From Thermoplasmata archaeon (GTDB lineage: Archaea; Thermoplasmatota; Thermoplasmata; Lutacidiplasmatales; UBA184): a stretch of 31,547 nt of DNA. Within the stretch, counting starts at the first letter, position 1, and each line of letters opens with the position of its first letter. Under the pieces are notes generated by a model. It made no database searches and had not been told where the DNA came from. It saw only the letters and a program-made list of their open reading frames with translations. This document shows positions 23,815 through 31,547 of the stretch, one piece after another. The translations under genes and the position numbers were made by a program. Where the stretch lies: positions 4,276-35,822 of the forward strand of contig JAJYUO010000001.1 in assembly GCA_021792485.1 (NCBI GenBank), in the 5' to 3' direction.

Positions 23815-23886
23815 GCGGTTGTGGTCTAGTGGTTAGGACGGTAGCTTCCCAAGCTACCTACTCGGGTTCAAATCCCGACAACCGCA
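23815..23886 (+). tRNA. tRNA-Gly(CCC)
   Basis: Acceptor GCGGTTG/CAACCGC, anticodon stem GTAGC/GCTAC with loop TT-CCC-AA, and T-arm with TTCAAAT. No intron and no encoded CCA. Confidence 0.96.
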
Positions 23887-24264
23887 CTTGCCCGAATCGG
23901 CCCCTCGGCGTGCGTTTCGCTCGCGCCGGCGGAGGCGACGCACCCCCATCCCGGCAACGACGTGGGAGGTGGGCCGGAGTCCGAAGCATCCTTGGCGAGG
24001 ATCTCGTAGATTCAAGCGATACTCTTCGGCTTGAGGGGGTCCCGTATCGTGGACAGTTCCCTTCGGCCCATGATCGCGCGATCCCCGCTCCCCGCCTCCT
24101 GCGGCCGCGGACAGCCGGGCAGGCGCGTCTCCCAACCCCACCGCCCGATCCCGAGACCCGGCCCTCGTCCATCCCCTCGCCATTTGCGTGGCGTGGCCCG
24201 CCGACAAGAATACCGCTTCGGCGGTCCGACGACCGCCGAGGACGGATCCGGCGACGCGCGCGTC

Positions 24265-25278
24265 TCAGTGAAGCGGGAGCAACCCACGAAGCCGACCGTC
24301 GAGTTCCATCGCGTCGGCGGAGTGTGGAGGAAGGAGACGGGGACGATCGTTCCCACCGATCGATACGGTGTAGCGTTCGCGAATTACGTCCCCGTCCACG
24401 ATGGCGGCGAGGAGCCCTTCGCCATCAGCGGCGCGGAGAACGAGCAGGCCGTGAGGGCCTGCGACTCGGATGCGGCGCAGGGGATCCTCCGATCGCCGCG
24501 GGATGGGCGGCAGCTCCCGCCACTGGGGATCCGCGTGGCGGGCGAGCGTCTCCGTGCGGAACCGTATCTCCTCCCGGTCGGTGGGATCTCCGACACGAAC
24601 GCGGAAGAGCCGTTCGCGTTCGAGGGCGCTGACCAGGGCGTTGCGCATCGACTCCGGGCTCGGAACGTGGCCCCGTTCCGAGCGCCATGAGGTGATCCAC
24701 CGACCAATCTCGCGGCGGAGGAGGGAACGAAGGGCCGGATCGGGCAACCGAAGGACATCCGTCATCGAACGCACGTCGGCCCGACCGAGGAAGCCCCCGA
24801 CGATCACGCGGGCTCCCTCCCAGTCTCCTCCGGCATTGCCCGAGATCTTCCGTTCGCGAACCACCAAGTCGCTGGGGGGGCGAAACGAGGCGAAGAGGCC
24901 CAAGTCCCGGGCCGCCCGGACCGGTGCCCGCAGGAACTTCTGGAGATCCGCGCTGCCCCCTCGGTCGCCTTTCTCCTCCCGATAGACGAACTGGTAGAAC
25001 CACTGATTCTCATCGAGGTAGGTCGTGCCGCCTCCCGTCACGCGACGCAGCACCGGCATCGGCCGTCGCGCGAGGAACGCCGGGTCGAGCTCATCGAGAA
25101 ACGACTGATGGAACCCGAGCGAGACGTACGGTGCGGCCGGCCGCGCGACGAGCAGCGTGTTCGGGACCTCGCCGTCCGCGACGGAGGGCGCCACCGCCTC
25201 GACGAACGCCTGAGCGCGCTCGGGAGCGCAGGCTCCGAGGTCAATGAGGCGCCAGACCGGCAGCTTCTCTTCCGACAG
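24265..25278 (-). CDS. lipoate-protein ligase A family protein (probable CTG start at 25278)
   Basis: YVSLGFHQ, VLRRVTGGGTTYLD and RKISGNA (conserved Lys). The family-like N-terminus WRLIDLG...AQAFVEAVA lies upstream of the track start 25194, in frame. Confidence 0.88.
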   Translation of the reverse strand: MSEEKLPVWRLIDLGACAPERAQAFVEAVAPSVADGEVPNTLLVARPAAPYVSLGFHQSFLDELDPAFLARRPMPVLRRVTGGGTTYLDENQWFYQFVYREEKGDRGGSADLQKFLRAPVRAARDLGLFASFRPPSDLVVRERKISGNAGGDWEGARVIVGGFLGRADVRSMTDVLRLPDPALRSLLRREIGRWITSWRSERGHVPSPESMRNALVSALERERLFRVRVGDPTDREEIRFRTETLARHADPQWRELPPIPRRSEDPLRRIRVAGPHGLLVLRAADGEGLLAAIVDGDVIRERYTVSIGGNDRPRLLPPHSADAMELDGRLRGLLPLH

Positions 25279-25303
25279 ACCGCCTCCCGATTGGGCCTGC
25301 CGT

Positions 25304-25702
25304 TCAGCCGCGGCCGGTTCTTTCCCTACGGCCTCGGGCCTCGAGAGCGCCTGGGTCCTCCGGCCTCATCCGGTAGAGCCAGCCGTCGCCGTACGGATCC
25401 CGGTTGATGGGCGAAGGGTCGGTCTCGAGCGCGCCATTCGTATCGACTACCGTACCCGACGCCGGGAGCGACAGGTGCCCTACCCACTTGGCGGACTCGA
25501 GGCTCAGCGCGGGCTCCATCGCACCGTAGCGACGGCCCGCGACGGGGCCCCGATAGTAGGCGATCGGGCCCATACGATGCTGGGCCGCCTCGGTCAGGCC
25601 GATCACATACGACCCATCGATATCCCGCCGGAACCACAGATCCCGTCCGAGGGCACAAACGGGACCGGGGTCTCTGCCGACGGCGTCTTCGGCCGACCGC
25701 AT
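25304..25702 (-). CDS. GcvH-like lipoyl-carrier protein, LbpA-like
   Basis: IGLTEAAQ, lipoylation motif ESAKWVG, P.SGTVVDTN and INRDPYGDGW. Confidence 0.88.
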   Translation of the reverse strand: MRSAEDAVGRDPGPVCALGRDLWFRRDIDGSYVIGLTEAAQHRMGPIAYYRGPVAGRRYGAMEPALSLESAKWVGHLSLPASGTVVDTNGALETDPSPINRDPYGDGWLYRMRPEDPGALEARGRRERTGRG

Positions 25703-25708
25703 CCGAGT

Positions 25709-26404
25709 TCAGGGAGGCCCGGAGGCGCCCGCCGAAGTGCGGCCGAGCTGCTTGAGCAGGGCCAACAGGACCTTTGCGCCCCGTTGAATGTCGGGATCGC
25801 GCAGAGCCCGACTCAGAGCGAATACTCCCGAGATAGTCGGGACCTGATCAAGCTCCCGTTCCCGGCGAGAGGGATCGGCGAGGAATGCGGACGACTCCGA
25901 AAGAAGCGAGAGCGCCGGCGCCGCCTTCACAGCGGCGTGCACGAGCGGCTCGATCTCCTCCTTCGGAGGCAGCGACTCGACGAAGTGCATCCATCCGACC
26001 GCCGAGGATCCCGCATGAGCGACCATCCCGTCGGTCGTCGCCTGAGCCACCCCGACCAGCCCCTCGGCGAGGGTGAACAGAGTGTCGAGCGCCCCCGTTT
26101 CCTTCCACTCGGCGAGCCGGTCGATGAGGAGGAGAACCGCGTCCCGCCGCCGCTCATCCTGAGCGATCCAGTCCAACAACGACAGCGCCCCGACGAGGGT
26201 CGAACCGGCTGAGCCGAGCATCCGGTCCGTCATGGCGTCGCTCGCGCCGACCACGCCCTCCGCCAGCGAGAAGAGCCGGTCCAGAGTGCCGTCCGCCTGC
26301 CAGCGGGCGAGCCGCTCGCCCAGGGCTCGGAGCGCCACTGCCGAATCGTCCGGAGAAGCCGGAGGCGATGCCGCGGGAGAGGAGGCGGGCGAAGGAGAGG
26401 ACAT
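25709..26404 (-). CDS. DUF1641 domain-containing protein
   Basis: C-terminal ALSRALRDPDIQRGAKVLLALLKQLG. It lies directly downstream of the SQR-like gene. ATG 26404. Confidence 0.8.
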   Translation of the reverse strand: MSSPSPASSPAASPPASPDDSAVALRALGERLARWQADGTLDRLFSLAEGVVGASDAMTDRMLGSAGSTLVGALSLLDWIAQDERRRDAVLLLIDRLAEWKETGALDTLFTLAEGLVGVAQATTDGMVAHAGSSAVGWMHFVESLPPKEEIEPLVHAAVKAAPALSLLSESSAFLADPSRRERELDQVPTISGVFALSRALRDPDIQRGAKVLLALLKQLGRTSAGASGPP

Positions 26405-26415
26405 ATGGGTTCTCC

Positions 26416-27564
26416 CTAGAAGAGCGCGCGCGCCGTAAGGTCCCAGTACGTTCGGTTGTAGATCACCTTGTTCCAGTAGTGCGCGAACGAGGGTGTGGGC
26501 GGGTGCGGCGGGTGGAGATAGTCGAACTTGATGTACGTCGCCTGTGCGAGCCCGGTCATGATCCAGCAGTAAACGCGACCCTCGTAGCGCGCCGTCGGAG
26601 ACTCCCCGCGGGCGAGCGCTGCCACGTTCTGCGTGACCACCTCGGCCTCGTAGTCGGCGGTCGATCCCGCCTTCGAGATCGGGATGTTGGTGGCGTCGCC
26701 CAGGACGAAGACGTTCTCCTTTCCCTCCGCTCGGAGGCTGAACTTGTCGGTCGGGATCCAGTTGCCCTTGTCTCCTAGGCCTGAGGCCCCCACAAAGTCC
26801 GCACCGCGATGCGGTGGAATGGCGATGAGAAGGTCGTAGGGAAGGGCCTCGCCCTCCACCGCGCTGATAGTCTTGGCAGCGGGGTCGATTTTGTCTACGT
26901 TGAACGGGACGTGCACCGAGACGCCCCGCTCGCCCATGAGCCGCTGCATGGGTTGCGCTACGGTATCGATCCCGAAGACCTTGGGGATCGGATAGGTGTA
27001 GTGGATCTCCGACTTTTCCCGGAGGCCGCGGCTCCGCAGGTAGTCGTCCAGCATGAACGTCACCTCGAGCGGGGCGACCGGACACTTGTAGGGCATGCCG
27101 GCAACGGAGACCACGATACGGCCGCCCTGGAACGCGTGGAGCGCGGAGCGGAGCTTGATCGCGTTCGAGAGATCGTAGAAGCTGTGGGCCCCTTCGGGGA
27201 ACCCCGGGATGAGCTCCGGGTGGATCACCGAGCCGCTGGCGATGACGAGAACATCGTACGGAACGAGCTTTCCTCCTTTCAGGACGATCTGGTTGGCCGT
27301 CGAGTCGATCTTCTCCACTTCGCCTTTGACGAGCTGGATCGAGCGATGGAGGAGTTGGCTCTCGTCACGTCGGGTCTCTTCAGGCCGCATCTTCTCGAAG
27401 ACGACCATGAGATACCCGGGCTGGTAGGCATGGATCCCCTCCCGATCGACGAGTTGGATCTGGACCTGTCCGCCCGCCACCTCCGATTCCAGGGCTCGGC
27501 GAATCCGGTTCGCCACCGTCGTTCCCCCAATCCCGCCTCCCACCACTACGACGCGCTTTGCCAT
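26416..27564 (-). CDS. sqr: sulfide:quinone oxidoreductase-like flavoprotein (type III-like)
   Basis: VVVVGGGIGG, YQPG, YDVLVIASGS, YKCPVAPLE (Cys), VLGDATN...SKAGS and VYCW (second Cys). RBS GAGGAGG. Confidence 0.85.
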   Translation of the reverse strand: MAKRVVVVGGGIGGTTVANRIRRALESEVAGGQVQIQLVDREGIHAYQPGYLMVVFEKMRPEETRRDESQLLHRSIQLVKGEVEKIDSTANQIVLKGGKLVPYDVLVIASGSVIHPELIPGFPEGAHSFYDLSNAIKLRSALHAFQGGRIVVSVAGMPYKCPVAPLEVTFMLDDYLRSRGLREKSEIHYTYPIPKVFGIDTVAQPMQRLMGERGVSVHVPFNVDKIDPAAKTISAVEGEALPYDLLIAIPPHRGADFVGASGLGDKGNWIPTDKFSLRAEGKENVFVLGDATNIPISKAGSTADYEAEVVTQNVAALARGESPTARYEGRVYCWIMTGLAQATYIKFDYLHPPHPPTPSFAHYWNKVIYNRTYWDLTARALF

Positions 27565-27578
27565 CGCTGAATTCCTCC

Positions 27579-27857
27579 TCAACCGTGCTTCTTACGGATC
27601 GTGTACCGGTCGTATCCCTCTTCCCGGGTCATGCCCAGGAGCTCGTGTCCCGCCTTCTCGAGCCAGAGCGGGACGTCGTTCCGGGAGCCTTCGTCGCTCG
27701 ACCACAGCTCGAACTCGGTGCCAACCGGCTCCTCCTGGATCACCCGGACGAGCTCCATCAGAGGACCCGGGCACCAACTCCCCCGGGCATCGACGACCAT
27801 GCGTCGCGGCCCGTTCGGGGATTCCGCGGTTCCGGGCGATGCTCCGGTGCCGCTCAC
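27579..27857 (-). CDS. tusA: sulfurtransferase TusA family protein
   Basis: VDARGSWCPGPLMEL...SSDEGSRNDVPLWLEKAGH. GTGA overlap with the upstream gene. Confidence 0.92.
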   Translation of the reverse strand: MSGTGASPGTAESPNGPRRMVVDARGSWCPGPLMELVRVIQEEPVGTEFELWSSDEGSRNDVPLWLEKAGHELLGMTREEGYDRYTIRKKHG

Positions 27858-28291
27858 ACGAAGTACGCCACGCGAGCGTCCCTGGTCCGATCGACGAACG
27901 TCGCGATGCCGGTCACCCCCTCGACCAAGGGGTCGAGATCGTCCTTACGGAGCCCGAGGATCTCCATCGACTGCGAGCACGCGTAGATGTGGAGGTCGCC
28001 GAGCGACCTGGCCATCTCCAAGATCGATCGCCACGACGGGGCTCCCTTTCCTTTGAGCGCGGTTTCGAGGCGCGCGCCGTCGTCTCCGTGGCCCGGTGCG
28101 ATCCGAACGGAAGCTCCGGCGGGCCTCGCGCGGAACGCCATGAGTCCCCAGTAGCTCGCAAAGACGTCCACGCGCATCCCCATCGCGACCGCCCCGCTCA
28201 CCAAGGTCGCGAACGGCAGCAACTTGTCGGTGGAGTCCTCCGTGAGGACGATGGCCATCTGCGGCACGGTGGGAGCTGATGTGCTCTCCAC
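27854..28291 (-). CDS. DsrE2-like (DsrE/DsrF/DrsH-like) sulfurtransferase family protein
   Basis: ATLVSGAVAMGMRVDVFASYWGL and YACSQSMEILG (conserved Cys). Confidence 0.85.
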   Translation of the reverse strand: MESTSAPTVPQMAIVLTEDSTDKLLPFATLVSGAVAMGMRVDVFASYWGLMAFRARPAGASVRIAPGHGDDGARLETALKGKGAPSWRSILEMARSLGDLHIYACSQSMEILGLRKDDLDPLVEGVTGIATFVDRTRDARVAYFV

Positions 28292-28311
28292 GGGCCGCTC
28301 CCGCCCCGCGC

Positions 28312-28767
28312 CTAGATGAACAAGGTGAGGGCGTCCGGACGGGACGCGAACTCGAGGTACGTGCTCGCGCCGATGACGTCATCGACCTCGCTAACGAGGT
28401 TTGCCTTCGTCAGGCCGAAGGCGTCCATGGTCGGTGAACAGGCGTGGATGTGCACGCCCGCTTGCTTGGCCTGCTGCATGAACTGCTCGACCGAAGGGAA
28501 CTTCTTCTCGAGCGCCCCGCGGATGTCCGGGGGAAAGACATCCATGGCCTTCTTCCGCCCCTCCGGGGTCAATAGTTGCATGCCCCAGAATGTGAAGTAG
28601 ACATGCGCATCCATTCCCAAGGCACGCGCCGTCGTCGCGAGGATGAGCGCGGGGTACGCCATGTCCGCCCCGCCCTTCGACAACACCAGGAAGAGCGACT
28701 TCTTCCCTTCCTGCTTCGCATGCTCGATCGCCGCCGTCCCCTTCGTGGCCGCCGCGTCTGCTACCAT
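28312..28767 (-). CDS. DsrE2-like (DsrE/DsrF/DrsH-like) sulfurtransferase family protein
   Basis: AYPALILATTARALGMDAHVYFTFWG, HACSPTM (Cys) and VIGASTYL. Confidence 0.9.
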   Translation of the reverse strand: MVADAAATKGTAAIEHAKQEGKKSLFLVLSKGGADMAYPALILATTARALGMDAHVYFTFWGMQLLTPEGRKKAMDVFPPDIRGALEKKFPSVEQFMQQAKQAGVHIHACSPTMDAFGLTKANLVSEVDDVIGASTYLEFASRPDALTLFI

Positions 28768-28780
28768 GTGTTTTCCCCTC

Positions 28781-29017
28781 TCACTTGTGTTCCAGCACGA
28801 ATCGGAAGGTCCCTCCCGATTCCGAGTTCTCGCACAGCGGGTGTCCTGTCCGCTTCGAGAATGCCACGAAGTCCGAAGGCGCGGCCGGGTCGTCCGCGAG
28901 CACTTCCAGCCGCTCTCCCGGATTCAATGACTCAATCGCTTGGCTCGCCTTAAGGATCGGCATCGGGCAAAAGAGCCCCCGCGCATCCAGATGCGCCTTC
29001 GCGTCGCTGGCGGACAC
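28781..29017 (-). CDS. tusA: sulfurtransferase TusA family protein
   Basis: LDARGLFCPMPILKA...LEVLADDPAAPSDF. GTG 29017 fits the promoter and a GAGG. ATG 29035 is the alternative. Confidence 0.93.
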   Translation of the reverse strand: MSASDAKAHLDARGLFCPMPILKASQAIESLNPGERLEVLADDPAAPSDFVAFSKRTGHPLCENSESGGTFRFVLEHK

Positions 29018-29051: not shown

Positions 29052-29062
29052 TACTTAACTTT
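29052..29062 (-). promoter_or_regulatory. putative BRE/TATA promoter of the tusA-dsrE2-sqr-lbpA-lpl operon
   Basis: AAAG-TTAAGTA on the minus strand, in the 221-nt gap that separates the two sulfur-relay gene runs. Confidence 0.55.
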
Positions 29063-29238
29063 ACGTTTGTCCAGATGGGCCTCGGCGGTTCTGGCCGGGA
29101 TCGACATCCGTCTTGAGATGCACTTCCCCGAGGTCGCCCCGGGGCTGGGTACCCGAAATCACGGACCCCGCCCCGTCCGAAGGGGCGCAGAGCGTAATCG
29201 GACCTAGCTGGTCACCGGCCGCGCGGCGGATCCTCCGA

Positions 29239-29637
29239 TCATCCCGGCGAGGACGAGCGCGACGGCACCTCGATCCGAAAGTCCCGCCGCTCGAGGACCG
29301 ACTCTTTGGGCACGGTGAGCACGTTTCGGTAGGCCGGGAACATGTCGGCGCCGTACCGACCGGCGAGAGGTATGTTCTCTTCCCCGAACGCGACCTCTCC
29401 GAGGGCAAGGAACCGTTCGTCCTCGCGAAGAAGCACTCCGGCGGCATGGAAGACCGGCCCCGTAAGCCGGGTGGCTCGCTCCGGAAACTCGAGGGCGTTC
29501 GGATCGCGGTAGCGGATATAGGTCACGCGGACCTCCTTCGGGGCGGTTTCGGTTCGGGGCTCCGACGGTTCCGCCGGACCTGCCGGGTGCATGGGCAGCG
29601 GGGACAGGGGGCCAACGGGCCTTCCTCCCTCGCTCAT
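29239..29637 (-). CDS. hypothetical protein
   Basis: ATGA overlap with the dsrH-like gene. A Pro-rich leader precedes a globular beta-rich segment (TYIRYRD...AAGVLLREDERFLAL). Confidence 0.7.
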   Translation of the reverse strand: MSEGGRPVGPLSPLPMHPAGPAEPSEPRTETAPKEVRVTYIRYRDPNALEFPERATRLTGPVFHAAGVLLREDERFLALGEVAFGEENIPLAGRYGADMFPAYRNVLTVPKESVLERRDFRIEVPSRSSSPG

Positions 29638-29960
29638 GAGAGGCCGATCACCTTCTCCGAACTCATGAGCTCAGCGACGAGTTCGTCCGAGCTTACGACC
29701 CGGACGGACCGATCCCGGTCGATCCTCAGTCCCCGTCCTCGAACATCGTCCTCCAGCACCCAGCACGATCGGGATGCCGTCGACCGAAGGTCCGCGCTCT
29801 CCGCGGCGGTGCTCGCGCTGCCGAACAACACGTCGATGACCTCGATCCCTTCTCGCTCGAGGCGATGCCGTAGCGCCTCGAGGACGGCCGCCTCCTCCTC
29901 GTGCAGCTCTTGGGATCGAACGAACATCCAGCGGCGTGGACGGGCGACCGGCTCGGTCAG
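29634..29960 (-). CDS. dsrH: DsrH/TusB-like protein (CTG 29960 or ATG 29927 start)
   Basis: WVLEDDVRGRGL...VRVVSSDELVAELM matches the DsrH/TusB pattern (L.EDV.ARG). It is third in a dsrE-dsrF run. Confidence 0.72.
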   Translation of the reverse strand: MTEPVARPRRWMFVRSQELHEEEAAVLEALRHRLEREGIEVIDVLFGSASTAAESADLRSTASRSCWVLEDDVRGRGLRIDRDRSVRVVSSDELVAELMSSEKVIGLS

Positions 29961-30325
29961 AACGCCACCACCGTGTCCGCTCGATAGATCTGGTCGGCGG
30001 CTCGCGCGTCGTCCACCTCTTCGACCGGGAGCTCGGGCACAAGGGATTCGAATGTCATACGGCGACGGGCGAGCGACGGGCCATGGACGAGCGCGGGCGC
30101 CTCCCGGGTCACGATTCCCCCGAGCATCTTCTCGATCGGGGGGCCGTACCGATACGGTTCCTGCCCGCGGACCAACGATCGAACCCCATCCCCGATGAAG
30201 AGGAGTCGGGCCGTCGACCCGAGAGCGGTGGCCATCGCGGCGACCCGGATCGCTTCCGCGAGATGGACGGTCGAGTGGGGGCAGTGACGCACCCACACCA
30301 ATCGGTACCGGTCCTGCTCGGTCAT
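29957..30325 (-). CDS. dsrF: DsrF/TusC-like protein
   Basis: EAIRVAAMA...LLFIGDGVRSLVRGQEP...ADTVVAF. ATGA overlap with dsrE. Confidence 0.8.
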   Translation of the reverse strand: MTEQDRYRLVWVRHCPHSTVHLAEAIRVAAMATALGSTARLLFIGDGVRSLVRGQEPYRYGPPIEKMLGGIVTREAPALVHGPSLARRRMTFESLVPELPVEEVDDARAADQIYRADTVVAF

Positions 30326-30678
30326 GCCTCTCCGGTAAAGGCGATGAATCGATCCGAGCGATCGATCATCTCCACCAGATCCTCGAGCGTCCCGTTGCGG
30401 GCATTGGGGAGCACGTCGCCGTCCCCGAGTCCGCGGAAGCGCGCGCAGGTCGAGCAGTTCGTCAGCTCCACGCTGGAGGGTAGCCTCGCGATGCGGTGAA
30501 CCACCGTCTCCTCCGGCGCCGACAGCAGCGCACGGCTCGTCGCATAGACGGCATCGGCGAGAAAGAACACCGACACCGCGTGGCCGAGGCGGTTCGCGGC
30601 CTCGGCAAGGCCAATCGCAGTCTCCACCCCGCGATGTTGCACCGGGGAGGAGAAGAGGAGAAGGCCGAGCCGTCCCAT
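30322..30678 (-). CDS. dsrE: DsrE/TusD-like sulfurtransferase
   Basis: SSPVQ...VFFLADAVY, NCSTCARFRG (active-site Cys region), and GTLEDLVEMIDRSDRFIAF. Confidence 0.85.
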   Translation of the reverse strand: MGRLGLLLFSSPVQHRGVETAIGLAEAANRLGHAVSVFFLADAVYATSRALLSAPEETVVHRIARLPSSVELTNCSTCARFRGLGDGDVLPNARNGTLEDLVEMIDRSDRFIAFTGEA

Positions 30679-30920
30679 CAGCGCCCCGATCCCCGGTCGA
30701 TCACCCGCCACCCCGACTTGGTGCAGAGATACGTCCGATCATCGATGCGGACGAGCGCTCCCAAGTCCACTTGGCTGTCGTAGAAGAGCCGGTTGAGGAT
30801 CGCCACATGATCGGCTTCCTCCGCCGGTGGAGCGGACTCTGCCCCCTCGGCTTCGAACGGGTCGCCGATGCGCCGGAGGATCGTCGCCGACGCAGCGCGG
30901 CCGCCGCGGGGAGGGATCAT
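30678..30920 (-). CDS. small hypothetical protein
   Basis: ATG 30920 overlaps the mrp stop and has GGAGG upstream. Its TGA overlaps the dsrE ATG. 80 aa. Confidence 0.7.
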   Translation of the reverse strand: MIPPRGGRAASATILRRIGDPFEAEGAESAPPAEEADHVAILNRLFYDSQVDLGALVRIDDRTYLCTKSGWRVIDRGSGR

Positions 30921-31547
30921 CCGCCTCCCTTGGGCGGGGCGGGACCGGGACGGACCGTCGGCGGCTCTCCCCGGGCCTTTCGAAGCCGGTCGAGCAGAAG
31001 TCGCACTCGCTGCCCCACGAGCGAGAGCACGGGGGATCTCAGCTCCTCTATGCGGCCCTCGTCCGCGAGCCCGGGCAGTCCGGGAAAGATGGGCAGACTG
31101 CCGAGGTACGGGATTCCCATGCGGCTCGCGAACTCCGGACCCCGGGAGGGGCCGAAGAGATCGATGCGATCGCCATGCGGGCACGTGAGATAGGCCATGT
31201 TCTCGACCAGGCCGAGGATCGGAACCTCGAATGTCTTCGCCATGGCCGAGGCTTTCGCCACGACCTCGGCCGAGAGCTCGGTGGGGGCGGTGACGATGAC
31301 GACGCCGTCGGGGGCCAACGACTGGAAGATGGTCAAGGGCGCGTCACTCGTTCCCGGAGGCAAGTCCACGATGAGGTAGTCCAACTCCGGCCAATCCGTA
31401 TCCTTGAAGAGGCCCCGGATGGCGCTGTTGACCATCGGCCCCCGCCAGATGAGCGGGATCTGGGAGGCGGCGGTCACCGACGCCATGGACATCAAGTACA
31501 CGCCGCCGGGGCTCGTGAGCGGCACGATGCGCTCCCTATCCTTCGTG
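30917..31547 (-). CDS. mrp: Mrp/NBP35 (ApbC) Fe-S carrier ATPase, 5' partial
   Basis: LIWRGPM, LDYLIVDLPPGTSD and LGLVENMAYLTCPHG. The frame runs off the window end. Confidence 0.93.
   Translation of the reverse strand, partial: TKDRERIVPLTSPGGVYLMSMASVTAASQIPLIWRGPMVNSAIRGLFKDTDWPELDYLIVDLPPGTSDAPLTIFQSLAPDGVVIVTAPTELSAEVVAKASAMAKTFEVPILGLVENMAYLTCPHGDRIDLFGPSRGPEFASRMGIPYLGSLPIFPGLPGLADEGRIEELRSPVLSLVGQRVRLLLDRLRKARGEPPTVRPGPAPPKGGG

Follow-up and report, generated by a model that had tools for sequence, protein, structure and literature searches.

The type II sHdr system for sulfur oxidation is present in Thermoplasmatota (Tanabe et al. 2024, PMC11094781), and the "Hdr cluster II" of Sulfobacillus is likewise a type II sHdr cluster (PMC4378227). 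TusA and DsrE2 are the sulfurtransferases most commonly linked to shdr genes, and DsrE3B is the only transferase that the published survey gives for type II systems of Thermoplasmatota (PMC11094781). The subject of this report is a row of eight genes, running from a tusA gene to a gene for a lipoate ligase (24265-29017, minus strand), in a 31,547-nt stretch of DNA from a Thermoplasmata archaeon. This whole stretch, called the window below, corresponds to C5:4276-35822, part of a contig of a 1.26-Mb metagenome-assembled genome (MAG; 184 contigs, 80% completeness, 68% GC), and its right end (31547) is also the contig end. With good confidence, the operon can be read as an accessory arm of a type II sHdr-LbpA sulfur-oxidation island in uncultured, high-GC Thermoplasmata of acid-mine-drainage sediments.

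Relatives of the source organism share with known type II systems the genes shdrC1, shdrB1, a short shdrA (345 aa), shdrH, a fused shdrB3, etfAB and emo. They also carry a two-Cys LbpA, DsrE3 and sLpl(AB), to which the window adds TusA and DsrE2. Whereas the survey gives DsrE3B alone, a convergent arm of 12 to 13 genes is found here, with two TusA proteins, two DsrE2B-like proteins, a DsrEFH-like trio, a sulfide:quinone oxidoreductase (SQR), a DUF1641 protein, a second LbpA and a second ligase. Further differences are that the arm is detached from shdr in this genome and that the lipoyl synthase found is LipA. Another precedent comes from the Sulfolobales, in which dsrE3A-dsrE2B-tusA lies by the type I shdr cluster of Metallosphaera cuprina (Liu et al. 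2014). There too, DsrE2B-like and TusA proteins are linked to an archaeal shdr cluster, but the sHdr system considered here is of type II, DsrE2B and TusA are duplicated, and SQR and a lipoyl carrier share the one transcription unit. This Thermoplasmata arm was not found described in literature searches.

Linkage of the array to shdr genes

In the order of transcription, the eight genes are tusA1, dsrE2a, dsrE2b, tusA2, sqr, a DUF1641 gene, lbpA' and lpl'. Their number, strand, coordinates and families, as given in an initial annotation made from the sequence alone, were borne out by Pfam and NCBIfam. The same annotation pointed out that no genes for sHdr, LipS1/S2, GcvT/P or a 2-oxoacid dehydrogenase are adjacent. 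This is true within the window; the array itself continues upstream, and the right edge is the end of the contig.

A tblastn map of 21 loci places the array tail to tail with the cluster shdrC1B1AHB3-lbpA-dsrE3-sLpl(AB) in at least 16 relatives, among them the closest relative, YF1.bin60 (SQR 90% identical), and a closed chromosome, OY970259. In one such genome, G002, a window-type array (lpl'-lbpA'-...) is directly convergent on a cluster that, by its Pfam content, is textbook type II sHdr. Its core consists of shdrC1, shdrB1, a 345-aa shdrA, shdrH and a 526-aa fused shdrB3, its electron-transfer genes are etfB, etfA and an ETF-QO-like emo, and at its carrier end lie lbpA (149 aa), a gene of dsrE3 type and sLpl(AB) (385 aa), the last with the LplA C-terminal domain. 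At least 14 genomes have the full array with sqr, so the linkage of lbpA/lpl to sqr is conserved in relatives; the initial annotation had named its absence there as a reason to abandon the proposal. The genes sqr-tusA2-dsrE2b are missing in four genomes (G002, G041, G053 and G047), the array is reduced to tusA1-lbpA'-lpl' in G004 and G133, and in G152 it is not physically joined to shdr. Among the relatives whose flanks were examined, the neighbourhood further includes etfAB/emo, sat, AprA-like and TauE genes: an AprA-like flavoprotein gene precedes sat in G002 (L037:2863-5019), a gene for a TauE/SafE sulfite exporter lies next to etfBA in G172 (L088:1471-2325), and in the closed genome TauE and etfBA/emo lie past mrp, at a distance of 3 kb.

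Co-occurrence points in the same direction. Of 151 sampled genomes from the family, 22 gave an sHdrB1 match, and 19 of these 22 also have an lpl' orthologue. The two lpl'-positive genomes with no B1 match are limited by their assemblies, the contig ending inside the shdr cluster in G047 and within lpl' in G144. Because lpl' accompanies sHdrB1 to this extent, and because LbpA' and Lpl' persist in six genomes that have no sqr, the arm tracks sHdr and not SQR. All loci recovered from public genomes belong to "Thermoplasmata archaeon" MAGs, many of which bear acid-mine-drainage site codes, or to the one closed chromosome, OY970259, and the metagenome runs that contain the window are mine-drainage and sediment runs.

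The source genome itself carries part of an shdr cluster. On contig C153, genes for a 4Fe-4S (Fer4) protein, a CCG-domain protein and a short HdrA-like FAD flavoprotein lie in a row and correspond to shdrC1-B1-A, being 76-80% identical to their G002 counterparts; of shdrA, only the first 222 residues precede the contig end. An ATP sulfurylase gene adjoins them and is divergently transcribed. The ETF genes of this assembly are only 30-40% identical paralogues, and an AprA-like gene was not found in it. A CCG protein encoded on C30 was considered as the missing sHdrB3 and rejected, being only 33% identical to sHdrB3. The initial annotation had preferred an archaeal module that stands alone without sHdr, which the genes on C153 and the complete clusters that the array abuts in relatives do not support. 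Its second suggestion, a split sHdr-type pathway, is backed by both.

Downstream, the array of this genome is bounded by a gene for tRNA-Gly(CCC) (ARAGORN; 23815..23887, plus strand), where relatives have sLpl(AB). Since independent Logan contigs cover lbpA'/lpl', a 376-nt spacer and tRNA-Gly(CCC) without a break, sLpl(AB) does not follow lpl' here. In the assembly graph, this tRNA gene forms a node whose depth exceeds that of the flanks 7- to 45-fold in four metagenome runs and which has alternative continuations; its two sides are equally deep. The sequence beyond it depends on the path that the MAG takes through the node, a shared repeat by which the pilus/ACT portion of contig C5 is joined to the sulfur portion. 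A tblastx comparison of the left flank of the window with G152 and G085 showed no synteny and yielded only the low-scoring noise that is usual for high-GC DNA.

The divergent carrier LbpA' and its ligase

The lipoyl carriers LbpA1 and LbpA2 and the ligase sLpl(AB) have been described previously (Cao et al. 2018; Tanabe et al. 2023; Kumpel et al. 2026 preprint). By the charge rule of the preprint, LbpA proteins are less acidic than GcvH, with an isoelectric point (pI) above about 4.5 and with basic patches (Kumpel et al. 2026 preprint). The product of lbpA' (25304..25702, minus strand; Pfam GCV_H 1e-23) resembles these carriers in its H-fold and lipoyl lysine, its conserved N-terminal Cys, its pI above that of GcvH and the dedicated ligase gene alongside. 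Lipoyl Lys72 (in ESAK72W) is conserved in 17/17 orthologues and Cys16 in 15/15. The pI of LbpA' is 6.74, and the medians for the LbpA' clade (6.1), shdr-linked LbpA (6.8) and GcvH of the family (4.9) agree with the charge rule. LbpA' differs from LbpA1 and LbpA2 in having no C-terminal Cys pair and in forming a clade of its own. The shdr-linked LbpA proteins of relatives have C7, C144 and C147, which is the two-Cys signature described for LbpA, and GcvH has no Cys. Moreover, the islands considered here differ from known LbpA/sLpl(AB) systems in having two carrier-ligase pairs each.

LbpA' is not a true GcvH, in agreement with the initial annotation, and several results suggest a second, lineage-restricted lipoyl carrier. 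Against TIGR00527, the GcvH equivalog model with a cut-off of 115.85 bits, LbpA' scores 69.9 bits, whereas a genuine GcvH encoded on C166 scores 148 bits. A maximum-likelihood tree of context-labelled Thermoplasmata sequences and a few metagenomic and bacterial matches contains three well-supported clades, namely LbpA' (100/98), GcvH (100/97) and shdr-linked LbpA with bacterial relatives (98/90). The annotation had proposed to give way if the H protein clustered with GcvH and glycine-cleavage genes existed elsewhere. Both gcvT (on C80) and a genuine gcvH do exist elsewhere in the genome, but the H-like protein groups apart from GcvH in the tree. In addition, lbpA' never adjoins gcvT/P. Public records label its orthologues "glycine cleavage system protein H". 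A search of solved structures with LbpA' returned GcvH entries only and so did not tell LbpA from GcvH. Orthologues of LbpA' amount to only about 15 clusters in 5.8 billion proteins, compared to more than 150 for shdr-linked LbpA, and the family is confined to shdr-bearing Thermoplasmata.

A third H-like domain is encoded on C44 (L010; 1181-1900, minus strand), with Arg at the position of the lipoyl Lys (MVESVRFTG). The domain is part of an in-frame fusion with a TusA-like domain without the CPxP cysteine motif, and the gene is convergent with a two-domain rhodanese gene (CRIGERS). This gene was rejected as the shdr-linked lbpA on account of the Arg, and its product may be a carrier or adaptor that is degenerate and not lipoylated.

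The ligase gene lpl' (24265..25278, or ..25194; minus strand; Pfam LplA-B_cat 2.9e-23) likely starts at CTG 25278. Its frame contains no ATG, GTG or TTG ahead of GTG 25194, and the longer gene is favoured because the frame upstream of that codon encodes "PVWRLIDLG...AQAFVEAVA", an N-terminus kept in all orthologues. The only plausible start for this conserved N-terminus is the CTG, which lies 4 nt after GGGAGG. By sequence comparison, Lpl' and the shdr-linked sLpl(AB) are paralogues with 26-30% identity, of which Lpl' is the shortened one. The catalytic Lys, K144 in RK(I/V/F/L)S(G/A)N, is invariant across Lpl' and sLpl(AB) in alignments. Unlike sLpl(AB), however, Lpl' has no Pfam match to Lip_prot_lig_C, and its C-terminal accessory domain is truncated in the alignment.

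A predicted complex of Lpl' and LbpA' scored 0.87, compared to 0.00 for the best of three controls; among reference cases, 51 of 78 solved complexes and 2 of 108 mismatched pairs attain that mark. The modelled interface includes LbpA' residues 69-76 (the K72 loop) and the active-site motifs of the ligase, and the model confidently predicts that Lpl' binds LbpA' with the lysine loop in its active site, although its pass shows likeness only because a like complex has already been solved.

In bacteria with sHdr, the usual partners of sLpl(AB) are LipS1/S2. A canonical LipA is encoded in this genome (C179:7390-8289) and in the closed relative (L082:4471-5385), where it scores 343 bits against a cut-off of 310. 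LipS1/S2 were not recognised in the closed relative among nine scanned radical-SAM proteins out of 11 matched, with a model set that includes no LipS. Two of these nine proteins have no NCBIfam name, and the remaining two of the 11 are longer.

Sulfur carriers, SQR and flanking genes

Four genes of the array, all on the minus strand, encode putative persulfide carriers. Two are TusA genes, tusA1 (CPMP; 28781..29017; Pfam TusA 2.1e-23) and tusA2 (CPGP; 27579..27857; Pfam TusA 5.7e-17), with Cys17 conserved in 18/18 and Cys29 in 14/14 orthologues, respectively. The other two are dsrE2a (28312..28767; Pfam DrsE_2/DsrE, with DrsE_2 at 1.3e-27) and dsrE2b (27854..28291; Pfam DrsE_2 2.3e-16), in which Cys110 is conserved in 18/18 and Cys105 in 14/14. 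The closest solved structure to both DsrE2-type proteins is 2QS7 (5.3e-22 for the dsrE2b product), which is DsrE2B of S. solfataricus (PMC11094781). Because both fall under the cut-off of the NCBIfam DsrE2 equivalog model (71.7 and 28.5 bits compared to 210), they are called DsrE2B-like here and not equivalogs. The cysteines named above for TusA1, TusA2, DsrE2a and DsrE2b are thus invariant in orthologue alignments, and so are both redox cysteines of SQR, C167 and C339.

The sqr product (26416..27582, minus strand; 388 aa) is an SQR-type flavoprotein whose best NCBIfam match, at 354 bits, is the type III SQR model, a selenoprotein-subtype model with a cut-off of 525 bits that is not reached. 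It matches human SQOR at 1e-41, and on these comparisons it is best described as a type III-like sulfide:quinone oxidoreductase.

The DUF1641 proteins HucM, ForE and Ncp were recently shown to build tetrameric, hydrophobic tubes to which quinone-reducing enzymes bind and which conduct quinone, and Ndh-Ncp has been reported from Bacillota only (PMC13524794). The protein encoded by the window (25709..26404, minus strand) resembles the scaffolds of Huc hydrogenase (HucM), ForCE formate dehydrogenase (ForE) and NDH-2 (Ncp/YjlC) in its C-terminal DUF1641 domain (Pfam 3.6e-10, residues 185-222) and in the position of its gene immediately downstream of that for a quinone-reducing flavoprotein with two dinucleotide-binding domains (PMC13524794). 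It differs in that its partner would be SQR and its host is an archaeon. Its match to the sequence of ForE1 is weak (E 0.96), and its gene neighbours sqr in every locus that has sqr. By analogy, this protein is presumed to be a quinone-conduit scaffold that couples to SQR. An SQR-DUF1641 complex is predicted because the conduit role of DUF1641 is known, the gene follows sqr and similar pairs occur in another Thermoplasmata family. In that family (L090-L119), all 18 sampled genomes (18/18) carry one to three DUF1641 genes each, mostly directly downstream of genes for SQR/NDH-2-family flavoproteins that are 21-39% identical to the SQR of the window. The SQR/NDH-2-type and DUF1641 combination is thereby a widespread archaeal gene pair analogous to Ndh-Ncp.

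The eight genes are closely spaced. The first six intergenic gaps, calculated from the coordinates, are 13, 20, -4, -4, 11 and 6 nt, and the gap between lbpA' and lpl' is 25 nt with the CTG 25278 start or 109 nt with the GTG 25194 start. The initial annotation's upper limit of 25 nt therefore stands for the first six gaps, and for the last only if the CTG is used. It also claimed a single BRE/TATA (transcription factor B recognition element and TATA box) ahead of the array. A promoter-like, AT-rich motif of 22 nt, TGGACAAACGTAAAGTTAAGTA (29052..29073, minus strand), lies upstream of tusA1, and in an alignment of 19 loci this block (29073-29052) is the sole conserved part of the spacer. Because the block is kept while the rest of the spacer is not, it supports a promoter at this place, and it fits an archaeal BRE/TATA. 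The tusA1 start was taken at GTG 29017, which has a Shine-Dalgarno-like GCGAGG 9 nt upstream; ATG 29035 is an alternative in the alignment of the start region.

Co-directional, syntenic genes run past 29017 to the contig end. The first is orf132 (29239..29637), a conserved gene for 132 aa that has no Pfam match and is syntenic in all full arrays. It is followed by a DsrH-like gene at about 29634-29957 (a weak DsrH match of 22.4 bits compared to a cut-off of 24.4), a DsrF-like gene (29957-30325; Pfam DsrE) and a DsrE-like gene (CSTC; 30322-30711; Pfam DsrE) with C86 and C89 conserved in 17/17. A small open reading frame of 80 aa (30678-30920), which matches no Pfam family and is also syntenic in all full arrays, separates this trio from a gene for an Mrp/NUBPL-type Fe-S P-loop ATPase (30917-31547; Pfam ParA/NUBPL 1.2e-50) that is cut by the contig end and is syntenic in relatives. 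All of these genes are on the minus strand. A 94-nt tRNA-Gly(GCC) called by ARAGORN at 30547-30640 was set aside as a probable false positive, as it sits inside the conserved coding sequence of the DsrE-like gene.

Proposed role, alternatives and significance

A mechanism can be proposed for the sHdr-linked arm in which every step is derived from family functions and synteny. The type III-like SQR would convert H2S to sulfane sulfur and pass electrons to quinone, probably via the adjacent DUF1641 scaffold. TusA1, TusA2, the two DsrE2B-like proteins and the DsrEFH-like trio would then ferry this sulfane sulfur, bound as cysteine persulfide, to the sHdr complex of the cytoplasm, which would be encoded on C153 here and directly adjacent in relatives. 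There, sHdr and lipoylated LbpA would oxidise the sulfur to sulfite. In relatives, electrons would exit via EtfAB/EMO, and sulfite would go to the AprA-like protein and Sat or to TauE. LbpA' would serve as a second, lineage-specific lipoyl carrier and Lpl', the paralogue of shdr-linked sLpl(AB), as its cognate ligase, with the octanoyl/lipoyl group finished by canonical LipA.

Certain observations weigh against the assignment to an sHdr island. In this genome shdr is not adjacent to the array, and a tRNA-Gly gene comes after lpl'. The C-terminus of shdrA, shdrH, shdrB3 and shdr-linked lbpA were not found in the 80%-complete assembly, and neither were dsrE3, sLpl(AB), emo or orthologous etfAB. 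With these genes missing from the assembly, a complete sHdr system in this organism is presumed and not observed. LbpA' falls outside the sampled LbpA clade and is without the C-terminal Cys pair typical of LbpA, and the Lpl'-LbpA' model may owe its score to the solved LplA-GcvH complex. The locus occurs in no RNA run. Earlier published work reportedly saw no sulfur transfer from TusA or DsrE3C to LbpA, and for this reason LbpA' may not accept sulfur.

Some of these same observations would suit other explanations. If the array formed a module independent of sHdr, with sulfane sulfur from SQR passing through TusA/DsrE2 to lipoylated LbpA' as a persulfide or redox shuttle, its physical separation from shdr in this genome and in G152 would be expected, as would a separate carrier clade with its own ligase, and rhodanese classically hands sulfane sulfur to free dihydrolipoate. 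This is quite improbable, however, given that lpl' is found in 19/22 sHdrB1-positive genomes with no lpl'-positive genome clearly lacking shdr, that array and shdr lie side by side in at least 16 genomes, and that LbpA'/Lpl' are kept with shdr in the six genomes without sqr (G002, G041, G053, G047, G004 and G133). The array might instead be merely parked by shdr and serve in sulfide or sulfane detoxification or homeostasis, as a cst-like operon, or in a biosynthetic sulfur or Fe-S relay, with Mrp and DsrEFH acting in cofactor or tRNA thiolation. Operons with SQR and TusA-type proteins detoxify in Staphylococcus, Mrp/NUBPL and TusBCD-like genes are classically biosynthetic, and the habitat is sulfidic mine drainage. 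This too is improbable: the array contains no persulfide dioxygenase gene, its co-occurrence and synteny with the dissimilatory shdr/etf/emo/sat island are tight, and a lipoyl carrier and ligase have no known role in detoxification.

The gene names could also be taken at face value. The record label of the orthologues as glycine cleavage proteins and the clear Pfam GCV_H match would fit a spare glycine-cleavage H protein with a general lipoate-salvage ligase, both placed in the operon incidentally. Such an explanation is very improbable, since LbpA' fails the GcvH equivalog cut-off that the C166 protein passes, falls in a separate clade, has a pI close to neutral and, unlike GcvH, a conserved N-terminal Cys, and is never encoded beside gcvT/P, GcvT being encoded on C80. 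Its family, at about 15 clusters, is also very rare and restricted to Thermoplasmata that bear shdr. Overall, an accessory arm of the sHdr-LbpA island remains the preferred reading.

Under that reading, no new pathway is revealed, and the new elements are the LbpA'/Lpl' pair, a richer transferase set, the SQR-DUF1641 pair within the arm, and the finding of LipA but not of LipS1/S2. A bolder proposal, which is tentative and rather doubtful at present, is that two undescribed devices are encoded here. One would be an orthogonal LbpA'/Lpl' pair, representing a third H-protein clade, that takes on a step which two-Cys LbpA does not, either together with sHdr or as a link from the TusA/DsrE relay to sHdr. 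The other would be an archaeal SQR docked on a DUF1641 conduit.

There are several implications for sulfur metabolism in these archaea. The LbpA/sLpl(AB) and LbpA'/Lpl' pairs are natural paralogous couples for probing how lipoate ligases choose their targets, and archaeal type II sHdr systems hold far more sulfur transferases than the published survey gives. The locus also provides a concrete candidate for an SQR-DUF1641 quinone-conduit complex which, if true, would extend the principle of Huc, ForCE and Ndh-Ncp to sulfide oxidation and to archaea. A nearly complete sulfide-to-sulfite/sulfate island, composed of SQR, a persulfide relay, type II sHdr, Etf/EMO, and AprA-like protein/Sat or TauE, can be placed in an uncultured acid-mine-drainage lineage of Thermoplasmata.

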